This document shows positions 8,353 through 20,444 of a DNA stretch of 53,094 bases, piece after piece. Each line of letters opens with the position of its first letter. Position 1 is the first letter of the stretch. A program made the translations under genes and the position numbers. The notes under the pieces are model-generated. The model was not told the DNA's origin. It saw nothing but the letters and a program-made list of their open reading frames with translations, and did not search any database. Source of the DNA: Candidatus Yanofskybacteria bacterium RIFCSPLOWO2_01_FULL_49_17 (lineage in GTDB: Bacteria; Patescibacteriota; Minisyncoccia; 2-02-FULL-40-12; GWA2-44-9); NCBI GenBank assembly GCA_001795695.1, contig MGKO01000004.1:1-53094 (forward strand), given 5' to 3'.

Positions 8353-9903
8353 TTAGGATAAAATGCGCGAGTAGTTCAGTGGTAGAACGCCTAACTGATA
8401 ATTAGGAGGTCCCAGGTTCAATCCCTGGCTCGCGCACCACGTTGGAAAAGTCAATGCCTCGCCCCGCCTTCGGCGGGTCTCGGCGACCAAATCGTACGGA
8501 TTTTTCGGGGCAAAAAGAAATTCCCGATTCCGTAAAATATGGTTCGAGCCGATGTTTTTCAGAAATGTTGTCATTTCGGAAAGATTTTCTGATTCAAGCA
8601 GATTAGCGGCTTGATTTAAGGACTTTACGAACTCACGAGCCGGTTCGAGCCAAGACAACCCTTTTGTCTCAAAGTCGGTAATTTTTTCGGTTAACTCGAT
8701 CTTTTGTGAAATGAGAATGTCTTTTTTAGCGGCGTATTCTCGTTGAGTAAGAGCGTCATCGAGATATACGTCAAGCAACTTTTGAAGTTTTGCTTCCATC
8801 TGTGATAATTGCTCTTTGAGATTTATAACTTCACTTTTGGCTTGTTCCTTTGCTTCGGTTTCTTCCGTATCCAACGCCGCCAAAACTTTCTTGGTGTCTT
8901 GGCTCGACAAAGAAACTTTTTGAAGGAAGTTTTTGATTTGAACGATAAGCTGATTTTCACCGAGATACTTTTCTTGGCACGTGCCTCGCTTCTTGGTACA
9001 GCGGTAGTAAGTGTATATACCTCCGTTGCCTTTCGCATATTGCGCAGTTATCGAGCAACCGCACGAGGCGCATTTCATAAGGCCAAGAAAAGGAAAGTTG
9101 TGTTTTCTGTCTGGGCGAATCTTGCCACGCTTAGTCATAACCTCTTGGCACAAATCAAAAAGTTTCTTTGAAATTAACGGCTCGTGTGTTCCCTCAAAAA
9201 CTTCCCCTTTGTATCTCATCAAACCAATGTAAAAGGGATTTTGGAGAATATGCTGAACATTGCTCAATGAGATTTTGTTTCCGGCATTTGTGAGCAGTTT
9301 CTTTTTCTCACACCAATTTGCGAGAGAGTTGAGTGGATATGCTCCGGTGGCGTACATCTCGAAGATTTTTCTCACTAAAGGAGATTTATCTTTATCAACA
9401 TCAATCCCTCTAGTTTTGGGATTATTGGAATATCCTACCGGAGCCCAGCTTGGCCACACTCCATTTCGTATCTTTTGGCGTAGTCCTCTTTTCACATTCT
9501 CTCGCAAATTGTCTACAAAATACTTCGATTGTCCAAAAGCAATGTTCAGCATAAATAATCCTTGCGGCGTTGGCTCAAACCAGAAGCAGGGAAATTTGAG
9601 GGAACGAATCAAGCCGCGATCCACGAAGTGAATAATCTTTCCACCGTCCACAGAATTACGCGCTAACCTGTCGGGGTGCCAAGAGATTATCCCGTCCGCT
9701 TTCCCTTGTTCCAACAATGACAACATTTCTGCGAATTTAATTCGCCCGGGTTCTTTTGCGGTTTTGGCCTCTTGGAAAGAGGCAACAATTTCAAGTTTTT
9801 CTTTGGCGGCAAATTCTTTGAGCTCAACAAGTTGAGCTTCAATGGAGAGAACTTGTCGGTCGTCTTCCTCGGTACTTTTTCTTGCGTAGATAATGTATTT
9901 CAT
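8353..9903 (-). CDS. Large serine recombinase (resolvase catalytic domain + recombinase domain + zinc ribbon + coiled coil)
   Basis: Motifs YARKSTEEDDRQVLSIEAQ (catalytic Ser), DRLARN, CASCGC..YYRC zinc ribbon, and a long coiled coil. The last ~60 codons run through repeat X and the antisense of tRNA-Ile. Confidence 0.85.
   Translation of the reverse strand: MKYIIYARKSTEEDDRQVLSIEAQLVELKEFAAKEKLEIVASFQEAKTAKEPGRIKFAEMLSLLEQGKADGIISWHPDRLARNSVDGGKIIHFVDRGLIRSLKFPCFWFEPTPQGLFMLNIAFGQSKYFVDNLRENVKRGLRQKIRNGVWPSWAPVGYSNNPKTRGIDVDKDKSPLVRKIFEMYATGAYPLNSLANWCEKKKLLTNAGNKISLSNVQHILQNPFYIGLMRYKGEVFEGTHEPLISKKLFDLCQEVMTKRGKIRPDRKHNFPFLGLMKCASCGCSITAQYAKGNGGIYTYYRCTKKRGTCQEKYLGENQLIVQIKNFLQKVSLSSQDTKKVLAALDTEETEAKEQAKSEVINLKEQLSQMEAKLQKLLDVYLDDALTQREYAAKKDILISQKIELTEKITDFETKGLSWLEPAREFVKSLNQAANLLESENLSEMTTFLKNIGSNHILRNREFLFAPKNPYDLVAETRRRRGEALTFPTWCASQGLNLGPPNYQLGVLPLNYSRILS
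8365..8439 (+). tRNA. tRNA-Ile (anticodon GAU), CCA encoded
   Basis: Cloverleaf GCGCGAG/CTCGCGC, anticodon stem CCTAA/TTAGG, loop CTGATAA, T arm CCAGG-TTCAATC-CCTGG, ACCA end. Confidence 0.9.
8440..8533. repeat. Arm X (attL side), inverted copy at 9949-10042
   Basis: 94 nt with 1 mismatch between copies. Contains the hairpin CCCGCC-TTCG-GCGGG. Confidence 0.9.
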
Positions 9904-11541: not shown

Positions 11542-11614
11542 GGGCCCGTAGCTCAGTTGGTAGAGCACCTCATTTGCAATGAGGGGGTCAGCGGTCCGAA
11601 TCCGCTCGGGTCCA
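11542..11614 (+). tRNA. tRNA-Ala (anticodon UGC), no encoded CCA
   Basis: Acceptor GGGCCCG/CGGGTCC with the G3:U70 identity pair, anticodon loop TTTGCAA, T arm GCGGT-CCGAATC-CGCTC. Confidence 0.9.
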
Positions 11615-11627
11615 CAAAGAATAAAAC

Positions 11628-15967: not shown

Positions 15968-16099
15968 CTTATAGGTGATAGGAAATAGTTTATAGTAAAA
16001 TCATAATCGCGCTGTAAGCGCGATTATGATTTTATCTGGCTATCATCCTATAACCTATAACCTATAACCTATAACCTATAACCTATAACCTATAACCTA
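15968..16099. repeat. H7 hairpin with 7 tandem CCTATAA units and an inner terminator
   Basis: Arm 1 is cttataggtgataggaaatagtttatagt. The inner perfect 16-bp hairpin is at 15997-16033. Arm 2 ends in (CCTATAA)x7 at 16047-16095, running into the pth stop codon. Confidence 0.8.
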
Positions 16100-16751: not shown

Positions 16752-16780
16752 TTGACATTGGAGCCATGCTTTGCTATAAT
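16752..16780 (+). promoter_or_regulatory. Consensus sigma70-type promoter of the DGR target gene
   Basis: TTGACA, 17-nt spacer, TATAAT, all exact. Confidence 0.7.
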
Positions 16781-16847
16781 TTACGGGCAAGTCGTAAGCT
16801 CTTTACGAATTACTGTTTCGGACAGTCATCCGGTAAAAAGAAAGGAG

Positions 16848-17756
16848 ATGGCTCCGATGTCAAAATCAAAAAAGACATTGGCTCCGTCCAGCATCGTGAC
16901 CAGCCGCGACCCGAAGGGTTTGAAGTTCACTTCCATTCCGGCGATGTCTTACGACAAAGCCCGGCTCTCCGAGGAGGAGGCCCAGCGCCTCAACGACACG
17001 CCAGGTCTGGCCGACCTGATTGACGGTTTCATCGCCAAGAACCGGCGGTTGAACCAGTACGCCAATGAGGAAGTTGGTTCTGGATACGGCTATCCCAAGG
17101 GCTTCAAGCCCAAGGATCCCATGTCACAGTCCAACGATCTGCGTCAGCTCATCGGTGGCATCGGCTTCTTTGATCAGGACTACCTGACGCTCGTGCAGAA
17201 CGGCACGGTCGCCCTGCCGGACGGAGCCGAAGGATGGTTCGCCATCCCGCGGTGGCAGAAGATCGCACCGACGTACAACGAAGCGGTGGAGAAGGTTCTG
17301 GCTCTGATTGCTTCCAAGCGCACGTTCAAGAACTGGCGTGAAGGGCAACTCGGTCCGGATCGGTTCCGACAGCATCCGCGGACGGCGCACGCGCTGGACG
17401 TCATCGCCGAACAGCAGAAGGGCGCGGACATTCTCATCATTCCGGCCCAGTTCGGCCAGCGTCACGCCGGCCGCAGCGTCCGTCGGGCTCGTGAGGTCTT
17501 CACTTCACCCGAGTTCGGTCTCGACGCGTTTAGCAACGCCGTGATGTTGCTGACACACCCGGAGCGCCTCATTGCTTGTGAGGATCTCTGGATCGATTGC
17601 GCTGGTGACGAGTACGCGCCTGCTGCCGATGGCCGGTTCAACGAGGCACCGTACTTCGACTTCTACGTCGGCTGTCTGGGGCTGGACGCGCACGTTGTGG
17701 GCAGTGCGCTCGACTTCTGTGGCTCCGCGTCTGGGTTCGTCCCGCAGGCAGTCTGA
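16848..17756 (+). CDS. DGR variable (target) protein; VR forms the C-terminal 42 codons
   Basis: AAAGGAG precedes ATG 16848, with a second ATG at 16857; the track start at 16752 lies inside the promoter. The C-terminus PAADGRFNEAPYFDFYVGCLGLDAHVVGSALDFCGSASGFVP is encoded by the VR. No N-terminal signal peptide or TM is visible. Confidence 0.8.
   Translation: MAPMSKSKKTLAPSSIVTSRDPKGLKFTSIPAMSYDKARLSEEEAQRLNDTPGLADLIDGFIAKNRRLNQYANEEVGSGYGYPKGFKPKDPMSQSNDLRQLIGGIGFFDQDYLTLVQNGTVALPDGAEGWFAIPRWQKIAPTYNEAVEKVLALIASKRTFKNWREGQLGPDRFRQHPRTAHALDVIAEQQKGADILIIPAQFGQRHAGRSVRRAREVFTSPEFGLDAFSNAVMLLTHPERLIACEDLWIDCAGDEYAPAADGRFNEAPYFDFYVGCLGLDAHVVGSALDFCGSASGFVPQAV
17619..17744 (+). other. DGR variable region (VR)
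   Basis: 126 nt aligned without gaps to TR 18135-18260. There are 18 differences, all at TR adenines. The last 24 nt (ggctccgcgtctgggttcgtcccg) are identical, an IMH-like block. Confidence 0.9.
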
Positions 17757-17821
17757 AACTTGACTGTTGGGTCATTGAATCTTTTGCAATATTGATTCTT
17801 GATCCGGCAGTGGTTCCAAAA

Positions 17822-17851
17822 GGGCTATTCACAGAATATCATGGATAGCCC
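17822..17851 (+). terminator. Hairpin after the target gene
   Basis: GGGCTAT..ATAGCCC followed by a T-rich run. Confidence 0.45.
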
Positions 17852-17870
17852 TTATTAATTTTTATATAAT
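17842..17870 (+). promoter_or_regulatory. Candidate promoter for the TR-containing RNA
   Basis: TGGATA, 17-nt spacer, TATAAT. This is the same TGGAYA-17-TATAAT form as the T1 loop promoters. Confidence 0.4.
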
Positions 17871-18134
17871 AAAATTGTTCGGCTTGCGTACAGCGGTCTA
17901 TGGATTTCTGTCGCCGAATTATCTTTCAAGAGGCCAGCCGGAATTCTTGGGGCTACGGTTTCAAGGAGCGTGCTGAATTGAGGAGATACTGCTTGTCTCT
18001 GTCTCGCGCAGATGCTCAGAAGTATACGATGGGCTCCTGCCACATAAAATTCAGGACGAGAGGACATAAGTTGCTTGAGAGCAACAGTAAACTTTGTTAT
18101 CCGGTGATGATAGATGGGCAGAGACAATAAATAA

Positions 18135-18260
18135 CCTGCTGCCGATGGCCAGTTCAACAAGGCACCGTACTTCAACTTCAACGACGACTGTCTGAAGCTG
18201 GACACGAACGATGTGAGCAATGCGAACGACAACTATGGCTCCGCGTCTGGGTTCGTCCCG
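18135..18260 (+). other. DGR template region (TR)
   Basis: Non-coding copy of the VR, rich in AAC/AAG/GAC codons in the VR frame. Contains 30 adenines, 18 of which are substituted in the VR. Confidence 0.9.
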
Positions 18261-18275
18261 AAGTCACTCCTCAAA

Positions 18276-18305
18276 AACAGTGCCTGCTTTCAAGCAGGCA
18301 CTGTT
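18276..18305. terminator. Perfect 12-bp hairpin just 3' of the TR, overlapping the avd stop codon
   Basis: AACAGTGCCTGC-tttcaa-GCAGGCACTGTT. A T-run follows on the minus strand, so it fits an avd terminator. Confidence 0.6.
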
Positions 18306-18654
18306 AAGCCTCTTTAGTAGACCTCAGCCAGCCACCGATTTGCCTTCCCAGTTCATCTATATGAGACTGCAAGATAATATATTTTTTAATGTCCAGAGCT
18401 TTTGTGTCTTTCATAAGTCTGATAAATCCTCTGAGCATACTCACTACTACACTTGTCTCCTCAATGATAGATATCCGTAGTTCTTTTTTGGTTTGTATAG
18501 CTCGGGCGATAAGACGAATAAGCTCCAAGGTGTGTAGCTCTGTCTGTTTCCAAATAGTATATTGGTCTTTGCGCGACATCGTCTCCCGATATTCGCAGAG
18601 GAGTTTATATAGGTCATACGCTTTTCGATAGATAGGGATATCAAATTCATTCAT
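18304..18654 (-). CDS. avd: Avd-like accessory protein (four-helix-bundle / 23S-rRNA-IVS protein family)
   Basis: 116 aa, basic and helical. N-terminal IPIYRKAYDLYKLL and C-terminal ..LQSHIDELGRQIGGWLRS fit the family pattern. Adjacent to TR and RT. Confidence 0.7.
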   Translation of the reverse strand: MNEFDIPIYRKAYDLYKLLCEYRETMSRKDQYTIWKQTELHTLELIRLIARAIQTKKELRISIIEETSVVVSMLRGFIRLMKDTKALDIKKYIILQSHIDELGRQIGGWLRSTKEA

Positions 18655-18758
18655 CCCGTAGGAAATTTAACTGTCCAAGATTTAACCGATACACGGTACC
18701 AGTCAAGACAAGTCACATATAAACTGTTAATAATTAATTTGTAAAAATTTCTGACGGG
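18655..18758. repeat. T2-like TIR element filling the avd/RT divergent spacer
   Basis: Termini CCCGTAGGAAATTT / AAATTTCTGACGGG. Its 104 nt matches the size class of the 105-nt T2 copies. The avd ATG abuts one end; the RT ATG lies 4 nt from the other. Confidence 0.6.
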
Positions 18759-18762
18759 ATTC

Positions 18763-19811
18763 ATGAAGATATATTATGATGTTTTTTCTAAAATAGTTTC
18801 CCTAGAGAGCTTATTTTTAGCATGGCAGGAGTTTCGGAAAGGTAAATCGGCAAAGGAAGATGTTCAACAATTTGAGTTCAATCTGGAGGAAAATATTTTC
18901 CAACTTCACGATGAGTTGGCTAACGGCTTGTATCGTCACGGACCATATGAAGGATTTTTCGTTCACGATCCCAAGCGTAGGCATATTCACAAGGCTTTGG
19001 TCCGAGATCGGGTCGTCCATCACGCTATATTTTCGGTTATCAATCCGATATTTGAGGAAACGTTCATTCCAACATCCTTTTCCTGTCGGGTGGGATTTGG
19101 CGCTCATCGAGGAGTGGCAAGATTGCATCAGATGCTTCGTTCGGTGTCCTGTAACGGAACCAGGTCTTGTTTTGCTTTGAAATGCGATATTAAAAAATTC
19201 TTTGACTCGATAGATCATAATGTCCTGCTGGACCTTATTGGCAACCGAATGAAAGATCCCTCGGCGGGAATTTTGGTGAGCGAAGTTATTAATAGTTACG
19301 CCACGAGAGAGAGAGAGAGAGCAGAAACAGCCACCGAAAAACCGGTTTGCCCATCGGTAACCTGACCAGCCAGCTCTTTGGCAATATCTACATGAACGAG
19401 TTTGATCAGTTCGTAAAGCATAAATTGCGAGTTAAGAATTATTGCCGCTACACAGACGATTTTATCATTGTTTCATCAGAAAAAGAATACTTAGAAGAAC
19501 TGATTCCGAGAATAGAAGCGTTTTTAGGAGAACGGTTGCATTTGAAGTTGCACCCTGCCAAAGTAAGTATCCGTAAGATGGGTCAAGGAGTTGATTTCCT
19601 TGGTTATGTACAATTTCTTAATCATAGATTGTTACGTGTTAAAACCAGACGTCGGATATTTAGGAAATTTAACAATCAAATATTAAAGTATCAGCAGGGC
19701 ATTATTTCTCGCGAAAAATTGAATAGTTCCTTGCAATCTTACCTTGGTGTCTTTGGCCATGCCGATACATTCAGCATTGAACAGGAATTGCTCAATTTAT
19801 TGCCCATTTGA
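18763..19811 (+). CDS. DGR reverse transcriptase, split into two frames at a (GA)8 tract
   Basis: ORF 18763-19365 carries the N-terminal RT motifs (..HIHKALVRDRVVHHAI.., FDSIDH). The frame open from 19296 to 19811 carries GLPIGNLTSQLFGNIYMNEFD (the DGR-type [IL]GxxxSQ motif) and YTDDF. Removing one GA unit fuses both into about 348 aa. Confidence 0.85.
19305..19320. repeat. (GA)8 dinucleotide tract at the RT frame junction
   Basis: gagagagagagagaga followed by g. Confidence 0.95.
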
Positions 19812-19841
19812 ATTAAGTTTTTTTTCTGTTAAAATACCCGA

Positions 19842-20444
19842 ATGCTAGAGCAAAATCCTATCGTTCCCATGCCGTCCGAGCCATCACTGCGTCAAGAACT
19901 TGGTGCGTTTGTATGGGAGACCATCAAGATAGTCGTCATCTCCCTTGTCATTATTTTTCCGATACGCTACTATCTGCTCCAGCCGTTCTTTGTGAAAGGC
20001 GCGTCAATGGAATCAACCCTTGAGGACGGCGACTACATCTTCATTGACGAGCTGTCGTATCAGTTCAACGACCCGCGGCGGGGGGATGTGGTCGTCTTCC
20101 GCTATCCCTTGGACCAGTCGCAATTTTTCATAAAAAGGGTCATCGGCCTGCCCGGCGAGACCTTGGAGATAAAGAACAATCAGGTCATCATTTACAACAA
20201 AATACACCCCAAAGGGCAAGTATTGCCGGAGCCGTATCTTGAGCCGGGCCAGCAGACCCTCGGCCAGATGCGCATCAAACTTGATGACAACGAATATTTC
20301 GTGTTGGGCGACAACCGGGCCAAAAGCTCCGACTCGCGCCGCTGGGGCGCGGTCAACCGCTCGCTCATCACCGGTCGGGCCTTTATCCGGCTCTGGCCGC
20401 TCAATGACGGCATCCGAGTTCCGCATATCAGCTATCCAATCTAG
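19842..20444 (+). CDS. lepB: Signal peptidase I
   Basis: Motifs GASMESTL (catalytic Ser), RGDVVVF, KRVIGLPGE, GDNRAKSSDSR. Confidence 0.9.
   Translation: MLEQNPIVPMPSEPSLRQELGAFVWETIKIVVISLVIIFPIRYYLLQPFFVKGASMESTLEDGDYIFIDELSYQFNDPRRGDVVVFRYPLDQSQFFIKRVIGLPGETLEIKNNQVIIYNKIHPKGQVLPEPYLEPGQQTLGQMRIKLDDNEYFVLGDNRAKSSDSRRWGAVNRSLITGRAFIRLWPLNDGIRVPHISYPI

Follow-up and report, generated by a model that had tools for sequence, protein, structure and literature searches.

A length-variable (GA)n tract in the reverse transcriptase gene of a Patescibacteria diversity-generating retroelement, and a predicted RNA domain pairing with both flanks of its template repeat

The DNA analysed here is a 53,094-nt stretch (the window) of contig MGKO01000004.1, from the metagenome-assembled genome (MAG) of Candidatus Yanofskybacteria bacterium RIFCSPLOWO2_01_FULL_49_17. 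It contains a diversity-generating retroelement (DGR) that comprises a target gene ending in a variable repeat (VR), a template repeat (TR), the accessory gene avd, and a gene for a reverse transcriptase (RT). The RT gene is split between two reading frames at a run of eight GA dinucleotides. The tract recurs in the RT across the lineage and varies in length; most copies are out of frame, and both halves of the gene are intact. Considered jointly, the comparative data suggest, with a probability of roughly 0.7, that this is a DGR of the candidate phyla radiation (CPR) clade in which the RT tract acts as a slipped-strand on/off switch and a structured RNA clamps the TR. The more specific joint proposal has somewhat better than even odds: that (GA)n flips the DGR so that a subpopulation diversifies, and that the same clade carries a new ~245-nt 5′ RNA clamping both TR ends.

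The locus, in a Candidatus Yanofskybacteria genome, is a real chromosomal DGR and belongs to the Patescibacteria (CPR) clade. The element itself is a genuine yet ordinary member of that clade, and is already present in public MAGs. In contrast, the recurrent RT-toggling (GA)n tract and the covarying RNA that clamps the TR both appear to be undescribed. A first-pass annotation of this DNA, made from the sequence alone, had found the element and left out these two features, which are its most unusual: the hypermutable tract of the RT gene and the RNA structure surrounding the TR. Little has been established about how DGRs are regulated, and mutagenic retrohoming that went unchecked would be expected to carry a high cost. 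If the proposal is correct, a repeat-driven RT switch would be a simple heritable control of a mutator, with a targeted mutator governed by a second, cruder one. Pipelines that demand an intact RT open reading frame (ORF) would then undercount or mislabel these elements.

The retroelement and the tract in its reverse transcriptase

Re-alignment agrees with the ungapped 126-nt pairing of VR (17619-17744) and TR (18135-18260) given in the first-pass annotation. Eighteen of the 30 TR adenines are changed in the VR (10 to G, 6 to T, 2 to C), as are none of the 96 non-adenine positions, and a recount found no non-adenine difference that would contradict the earlier claim of an all-adenine pattern. 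The probability that all 18 mismatches would land on the 30 adenines by chance is 3.1e-14 (hypergeometric). The VR lies at the 3′ end of a coding gene, in frame with the ORF ending at 17756, and the TR adenines fall at codon positions 1 and 2. The 15 recoded codons counted previously were recovered; the codon example offered with them (TR AAC AAC GAC GAC) had left out one TTC codon and was otherwise correct. Because all 18 differences between VR and TR are at TR adenines, the VR has been rewritten by adenine-mutagenic reverse transcription. It bears the footprint of adenine-specific mutagenic retrohoming, as had been proposed.

The 3′ end of the VR is less decisive. Its last 24 nt are identical to the TR, as noted before, but their invariance, which had been likened to an initiation of mutagenic homing (IMH) site, is uninformative because the stretch holds no adenine. 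Position 17745 is one more A-to-C change, and beyond it the VR and TR copies part at non-adenine positions. This arrangement, a G+C-rich identical stretch of 24 nt followed by 9 nt with non-adenine differences, suggests an IMH at the VR end and a non-identical IMH* at the TR end. The sequence directly 3′ of the VR contains just a weak 5-bp stem, on par with shuffled sequences, in place of a Bordetella-like hairpin/cruciform. No second VR was found on either strand of the window with a regular expression allowing any base at each TR adenine.

The identity of the RT and of Avd is supported by database searches. The best solved relative of the RT is the Bordetella enzyme bRT (8ub7, E 1.8e-43), with group II intron RTs at 1e-20, which bears out its earlier description as DGR-type; it also matches the PHROG 1423 RT at 4e-112. 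Its IGNLTSQ and YTDD motifs are instances of the (I/V/L)GxxxSQ motif in domain 4, which is clade-defining for DGR RTs (PMC3521204), and of YxDD. RT homologues bearing a source name come from Patescibacteria MAGs. The 116-aa protein that had been called Avd-like matches Pfam bAvd (PF22296, 52.3 bits, 9e-14, against a cut-off of 40) and PHROG 3206, 'Avd protein of DGR' (1e-16), and scores 57.4 bits on the NCBIfam DivGenRetAVD equivalog, under its cut-off of 80. The element thus includes the accessory protein Avd.

The element had also been described as complete. This does not hold, as the RT is not a single intact ORF in the window. One frame (18763-19365, 200 aa up to its stop) encodes residues 1 to ~186, and the part with GLPIGNLTSQ...YTDDF lies in the -1 frame (open from ~19297, stop at 19811). 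The break falls at the (GA)8 tract at 19305-19320, the only dinucleotide run of at least 5 units in the window. Frame is restored by (GA)7, giving 348 aa, or by (GA)10, giving 350 aa; all 120 of the best RT homologues listed are single ORFs, nearly all of ~349 aa. Separate production of the two halves as a split enzyme was rejected, as the C-terminal frame offers no usable start codon upstream of motif 4.

The same (GA)8 frameshift is present in 7 of 7 public contigs of the strain that span the tract, and these derive from various samples and assemblers. Eight of eight contigs encoding the exact target protein carry one identical VR, a uniformity that follows from their encoding exactly the same protein. 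A collection of 15 billion proteins holds only the 200-aa (GA)8 product of this RT. Exact-protein look-ups with the target, Avd and nine hypothetical RT products returned no other allele of this strain. Because the frameshift and the VR are identical across public contigs and no in-frame product is found, the element appears to be off, and its VR static, in the sampled population (n = 8). The activity that completeness had implied is accordingly unsupported for this strain.

To place this lesion in context, metagenome contigs were scanned at the DNA level, blind to frame, for (GA)5+ followed after a gap of 12-42 nt by a PIGNLT-coding pattern. At least 119 loci have (GA)n in the same RT loop as the window. 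Over all related loci (L004-L122, L144, L151, L152, L176, L179 and L189), n ranges from 5 to 35, and 16 of the 120 best RT homologues listed have in-frame RE repeats of varied length in that very loop. In the 98 loci with both RT halves (5-25 units), the tract leaves 20 in frame and puts 45 and 33 into the two remaining frames, so that ~80% are out of frame. The in-frame share is below the one-third expected by chance (P 0.003), also with duplicates removed. Nearly all tracts outside this tabulation belong to the RTs of loci in which the N-terminal half is missing; L066, which has a second tract, and L085, with a (TC)10 run next to its tract, account for the rest.

Loci without the tract behave differently. 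Among the best 80 RT loci from GTDB genomes, 3 of the 6 that bear a tract are out of frame, compared to 0 of the 74 without one (Fisher P 2e-4). Likewise, a frame-blind motif-4 pattern was used to retrieve 120 viral RT loci, of which 114 have both halves and none of these is out of frame; the tract occurs in no viral contig. Combined, 0 of 188 tract-less RT loci are frameshifted. Out-of-frame loci that bear a tract show no erosion beyond it. In 43 of 43 with complete halves, internal stops are absent and YxDD is kept, and VR/TR mismatches at out-of-frame loci are still all of adenine type (for example 25/25, 21/21 and 19/19). These frameshifted RTs are not decaying pseudogenes.

Tract length also changes on otherwise constant backgrounds. 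Contigs with 100% identical flanks differ in units as 8/9, 5/6, 7/8 and 11/14. One such on/off pair is particularly useful for inferring the consequence of a length change. In L005, n = 8 and the RT stops at aa 203; in L029, n = 9 and the RT is intact at 354 aa. The two are identical in the TR, in the 1,075 nt from TR to tract and in 527 nt beyond the tract. Their VRs, in contrast, differ at 19 positions, 18 of which are TR adenines, so that this sister element shows VR turnover between samples. A single 90% protein cluster holds intact RTs together with an ORF that passes through the tract in another frame. A divergent avd-RT layout, as in the window, is present in 34 of the 35 tract-bearing loci with enough upstream sequence, and the window's target family in just 12 of those 35. 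The tract goes with the RT lineage, not with the target.

Genes with simple-repeat contingency tracts (CT/GA or poly-G) are familiar from the surface and restriction-modification genes of Helicobacter, Neisseria, Haemophilus and Campylobacter. The RT shares with them a non-triplet intragenic repeat whose length sets the frame, as seen in the window; on/off length alleles in otherwise identical sequences, as seen in related elements and unseen in the window's strain; and flanking coding sequence that is intact in the off alleles (43/43). The contingency-locus reading rests on these features, that is, an intragenic repeat, length polymorphism in identical backgrounds, on/off frames and intact flanks, together with the one pair that shows VR turnover. 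In contrast to those genes, the switched gene here is a targeted mutator, the DGR RT, rather than a surface antigen or a methylase, its host is an uncultured CPR bacterium, and the system is known from consensus sequences.

If the tract is such a switch, the cycle would likely involve: gain or loss of units by slipped-strand mispairing at replication, leading to reversible phase variation of the mutator; synthesis of the RT at frame-restoring n (here 7 or 10), with copying of the TR RNA and replacement of the VR; and a frozen VR at other n, as in the sampled n = 8. A mostly-off RT would be consistent with a result from metagenome surveys, and would explain it: CPR DGR clade 2 is reported to be less active than average (Roux et al. 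2021, PMC8144416).

Several smaller observations concern the tract and the contigs of this strain. The tract usually has C before it and GTAAA after it; one off frame hits TAA at once, and the in-frame reading is R-V-K/N. The longest tract, a 70-nt (GA)35, is in a Candidatus Wolfebacteria RIFOXYD12_FULL_48_21 MAG (L176, MGIW01000005.1), with the RT out of frame; L176 is among the three out-of-frame GTDB loci counted above. Three short contigs of the window's strain from independent assemblies (L209, L210 and L211) start inside the VR at 17651-17653, and two end 9-15 nt past (GA)8, at 19329 and 19335. These ends were not counted as signs of minor variants, as their positions are off the expected de Bruijn branch. 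One further contig, L212, is 99.6% identical to window positions 17838-19065 (TR-avd-RT) and unrelated upstream of 17838, a position within the loop of the hairpin that terminates the target gene in the proposed annotation. Either L212 is a chimeric assembly, or it comes from a rearranged relative that lacks this target gene.

Alternatives to a slipped-strand switch

A number of points weigh against the switch. In this strain, no (GA)n length variant was found, the seven tract-spanning contigs all being (GA)8; no VR variant occurs at the consensus level or in the target's 90%-identity cluster; and 0 of 9 hypothetical RT products (other tract lengths or A6 repair) are present in the 15-billion-protein collection. 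The site of the frameshift could in principle be an A5 run (19337-19341) rather than the tract. In the lineage at large, the scarcity of in-frame copies may stem from mutational bias and not from selection. Finally, we infer reversibility from comparing consensus sequences, and length heterogeneity within populations from evidence that is likewise at the consensus level.

These points bear most directly on the possibility that, in this strain, the element could simply be dead. Its RT would then be a pseudogene created by a one-off frameshift, its VR a frozen relic, and its tract merely mutation-prone, without a regulatory role. Uniformity is what speaks for this account: every tract-spanning assembly of the strain has the RT out of frame, the eight contigs with the exact target share one VR, the 90% cluster contains no variant, and the in-frame RT is absent from the protein collection. 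On the other hand, the RT gene carries no second lesion, and it shares all invariant columns of the 20-sequence RT alignment A1, of which it is itself a member. Avd is intact, and the TR and VR differ at 0 of 96 non-adenine positions. Decay also does not predict intact halves in 43 of 43 frameshifted RTs across the lineage, or the variation in tract length among contigs that are identical in other respects, which include on/off pairs and, in one such pair, differing VRs.

Inactivated RTs in DGRs have a precedent. Elements described in 2012 include one with a frameshift-truncated RT whose TR/VR pair is still adenine-only (PMC3521204). Those lesions are sporadic and unrelated (a nonsense mutation, an insertion sequence and a frameshift), and a literature search on frameshifts in DGR RTs found only such sporadic inactivation. 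Here, by comparison, the lesion recurs at one tract in more than 100 loci and is the sole lesion in each. We consider a dead element an unlikely explanation.

Correction of the frame at expression is mechanistically distinct from a heritable switch, and we consider it improbable. RNA polymerase slippage or ribosomal frameshifting on (GA)n would give some full-length RT whatever the tract length, and would make the tract an attenuator. Such a mechanism would accommodate the frame distribution, in which both off frames are common (45 and 33 of 98) and the in-frame state is rarest, as well as the 'fresh' adenine-only VRs at out-of-frame loci; in the window, the A5 run 17 nt 3′ of the tract would permit a -1 slip. 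A single programmed event, however, is unable to fix both +1 and +2 offsets. As far as we know, it is at homopolymer runs and not at GA dinucleotides that efficient transcriptional slippage has been established. Change of length at the DNA level, in contrast, is directly seen between identical contigs and suffices for the data.

An artefact of sequencing or assembly at a low-complexity repeat, with all true genes in frame, has very little to recommend it: dinucleotide repeats are prone to stutter in the polymerase chain reaction and at least 12 contigs begin or finish within 150 nt of the tract, but (GA)8 is just 16 nt and identical in 7 strain contigs from different assemblers and samples, tract-less RT loci from like data are never frameshifted (0/188), and an artefact would not push in-frame lengths under one third.

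The RNA around the template repeat

The second unusual feature of the element lies in the 380-nt VR-TR spacer, which is conserved over divergent loci. Analysis of a 20-locus alignment with RNAalifold predicts a structured domain directly 5′ of the TR. The consensus structure has 52 pairs, 40 of them with compensatory changes. Across the alignment, 96.5% of cells are paired, and sliding the 3′ partners lowers this to 37-48%. Covariation scores 0.70, as against 0.11-0.15 for slid and 0.26 for shuffled alignments, and 0 of 500 shuffles reach 0.70. A sequence profile of the domain finds it at 37 of the 80 best GTDB RT loci, which are the closest RT relatives, and at 0 of 120 viral RT loci. In a search of the window against Rfam, nothing passed the gathering threshold, and the sole match at E <= 1 for the TR region is at chance level (E = 1).

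Two helices of this structure involve the flanks of the TR. The first is a long-range clamp between a strand of the 5′ domain and the 3′ flank of the TR. Eight of its 13 pairs show compensatory changes, as in GAGGAG/CTCCTC, ATTTAGG/TCTAAAT, ACAGAGA/TCTCTGT and GGGGAGA/TCTCCCC, and two positions are consistently mismatched. The second, a 12-bp helix contiguous with the first, closes at the 5′ edge of the TR; 99.6% of its cells are paired, and 8 of 12 pairs are compensatory. As the two contiguous helices pair with both TR flanks, the TR would be held as a loop closed by one stacked helix, beside an invariant ACU.C linker. A test of the clamp by duplex energy in cognate versus non-cognate combinations was noisy (-10.5 vs -8.2 kcal/mol), owing to G+C-rich flanks and to relatedness among many of the loci, and was replaced by column-wise pair counts.

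An alignment of the TR leader from 33 loci was set aside as too heterogeneous. About seven tract-bearing loci (L037, L053, L068, L084, L090, L104 and L113) appear to have another type of TR-upstream sequence, mutually alignable (e.g. GGTGAATAGC...CCCTCACG). The differing sequence of these approximately seven loci may represent a second class of TR leader RNA.

The limits of the transcript can be estimated from flanking signals. The RNA probably starts near 17878, downstream of a promoter-like site at which a -10-like TATA(A/T)T is kept in related loci, and probably ends at the hairpin 18276-18305. This hairpin has a predicted stability of -18.5 kcal/mol (z -5.4), which 0 of 200 shuffles equal, and a strong hairpin is seen by eye at the TR/avd junction in approximately two thirds of related loci.

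Base-paired flanks around a template are known in two other settings, the a1/a2 stem of retron msr-msd RNA and the TR-Sp duplex of the Bordetella DGR RNA, where Sp is an essential structured RNA element 3′ of the TR. The window RNA resembles these in that a structured non-coding domain adjoins the template, the 3′ end of which would be placed at a junction. It has no sequence or Rfam relationship to either. The position of the domain also differs: Sp lies 3′ of the TR, and the conserved domain of the window lies 5′ of it and clamps both TR ends.

By this comparison, folding of the ~245-nt 5′ domain could leave the TR as a closed loop set at a helical junction. The junction would be a likely binding site for RT-Avd, where cDNA synthesis would be primed, at the TR 3′ end, and halted, at the TR 5′ end. 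A point against this part of the proposal is that the likely priming role of the junction is drawn by analogy, from Bordetella Sp and the retron a1/a2 stems. The domain offers concrete helices and invariant nucleotides with which to probe how a template is selected, primed and bounded in a non-Bordetella DGR. This makes it useful for mechanism and for the engineering of DGR-based mutagenesis tools.

Target protein, related elements and genome context

The target protein is 100% identical to P0001 and to OGN27979.1, from a Candidatus Yanofskybacteria MAG. Its homologues, of ~290 aa, number more than 2,800, and those bearing a source name are all from Patescibacteria MAGs. Position 16752, where the locus had previously been taken to start, is the -35 box of a sigma-70-like promoter and not coding. 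The position of the terminator hairpin of the target gene is kept in related loci.

The earlier statement that the target has no recognisable domain or signal peptide was upheld: no Pfam, NCBIfam or PHROG family and no signal peptide were found, nor was a transmembrane segment, and a Pfam domain is present in 0 of 120 listed homologues. The 299-aa protein looks cytoplasmic. In an alignment of 115 homologues, the columns of highest entropy are the AAC/AAG/AAT codons of the TR. As the entropy peaks fall exactly at adenine-rich TR codons, the whole target family is DGR-diversified in the same register. The family is a sizeable and uncharacterised set of diversified proteins carried by episymbiotic bacteria.

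AlphaFold models of the target are confident, with a predicted local distance difference test (pLDDT) of 92.7 for the full protein, and of 91.3 with a predicted template-modelling score (pTM) of 0.90 for residues 120-299. In the model, the VR is predicted to form a C-terminal beta-hairpin and the strands that follow it. The diversified residues on this hairpin and the neighbouring strands presumably form a ligand-binding surface. Foldseek returned nothing at E <= 0.001 for the full model against PDB and BFVD or for the C-terminal domain against PDB, and a profile search of PDB sequences with the 115 homologues returned nothing even at E <= 10. In a check for a C-type-lectin fold, the best matches were weak: the C-terminal domain of Bd2740 (E 0.24, TM-scores 0.35/0.52) and a snake-venom C-type-lectin-like chain (TM-scores 0.36/0.48). 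TvpA matches the target model at E 7.8.

Comparison with described DGRs places the element within a known group. It shares a host lineage with the cell-encoded CPR DGRs (clade 2 of Roux et al. 2021; the 'CPR set' of Wu et al. 2018; Paul et al. 2017), whose targets, like that of the window, have no recognisable domain or transmembrane segment (PMC8144416, PMC5758913). Within the searchable DGR literature, Paul et al. 2017 lying outside the search, there is no description of the tract, of phase variation, of clade-wide frameshifts in the RT, of a structured RNA 5′ of the TR, or of a 5′ domain pairing with both TR flanks.

The DGR of Bordetella phage BPP-1 (mtd-VR, avd, TR, brt) is alike in its adenine-specific TR-to-VR transfer, the VR at the 3′ end of the target, the G+C-rich IMH-like end, Avd, and an RT with IGxxxSQ and YxDD. 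In contrast to BPP-1, avd in the window is inverted and lies between TR and RT, neither Mtd nor TvpA matches the target model significantly, and the RT has a length-variable repeat.

Table 1. Features of the retroelement, in window coordinates
Feature	Position	Strand	Remarks
Promoter-like site, TG-extended TTGACA-17-TATAAT	16752..16780	+	12/12 sigma-70-like matches
Target gene, 299 aa	16857..17756	+	likely ATG 16857; ribosome-binding site GGAG 16844-16847; alternative ATG 16848
VR	17619..17744	+	last 126 nt of diversified region; encodes residues 255-296 of 299
IMH-like VR end	17721..17753	+	24-nt G+C-rich adenine-free stretch identical to TR, then 9 nt unlike the TR copy (IMH vs IMH*)
Hairpin AAGGGCTAT ... 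ATAGCCCTT and T-rich run	17820..17853	+	likely target-gene terminator, read from sequence
Promoter-like site TGGATA-17-TATAAT	17842..17870	+	10/12 matches; candidate start of TR RNA
Structured RNA domain, ~245 nt	17884..18127	+	predicted directly 5′ of TR; RNAalifold, 20 loci
Long-range helix, 5′-domain strand GAGGAGATACTGC	17980..17992	+	pairs with TR 3′ flank 18260-18272
12-bp helix, 5′ strand TTGTCTCTGTCT	17993..18004	+	pairs with 18116-18127; contiguous with 17980-17992 helix
12-bp helix, 3′ strand GGGCAGAGACAA	18116..18127	+	closes at TR 5′ edge, 7 nt before TR
TR	18135..18260	+	30 adenines; six AAC codons in VR frame
3′ clamp GAAGTCACTCCTC	18260..18272	+	starts at last TR base; pairs with 17980-17992
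13-bp perfect hairpin	18276..18305	.	between TR and avd 3′ end; convergent terminator, T-run on minus strand
avd, 116 aa	18304..18654	-	opposite strand to TR and RT; Pfam bAvd, PHROG 3206
RT N-terminal half	18763..19304	+	ends at tract; frame continues to stop at 19363-19365
(GA)8 tract	19305..19320	+	loop between DIKKFFDSI and IGNLTSQ motifs
RT C-terminal half	19321..19811	+	-1 frame; GLPIGNLTSQ, YTDDF, thumb; no usable start codon ahead of motif 4

The source of the window is a Candidatus Yanofskybacteria MAG from Rifle aquifer data. The element is flanked by chromosomal housekeeping genes, including those for a membrane pyrophosphatase, an MscS-like channel, pth, signal peptidase and hisS. 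The cassette itself shows a contrast in G+C content between 16850-17750 and 18300-19850, with 57-64% in the target gene and 35-46% in avd and RT.

Two further observations concern the remainder of the window. A tandem heptamer, CCTATAA, is repeated ~7.5 times at 16047-16099, between the MscS-like gene and pth, and in the public scaffold L206 a string of N falls exactly on this repeat. At the start of the window is the 3′ end of a 16S rRNA gene (1-374). As tRNA-Ile (8365-8439) and tRNA-Ala (11542-11615) lie 8 and 11 kb downstream of it, with ORFs between, the rRNA operon is unlinked or interrupted.

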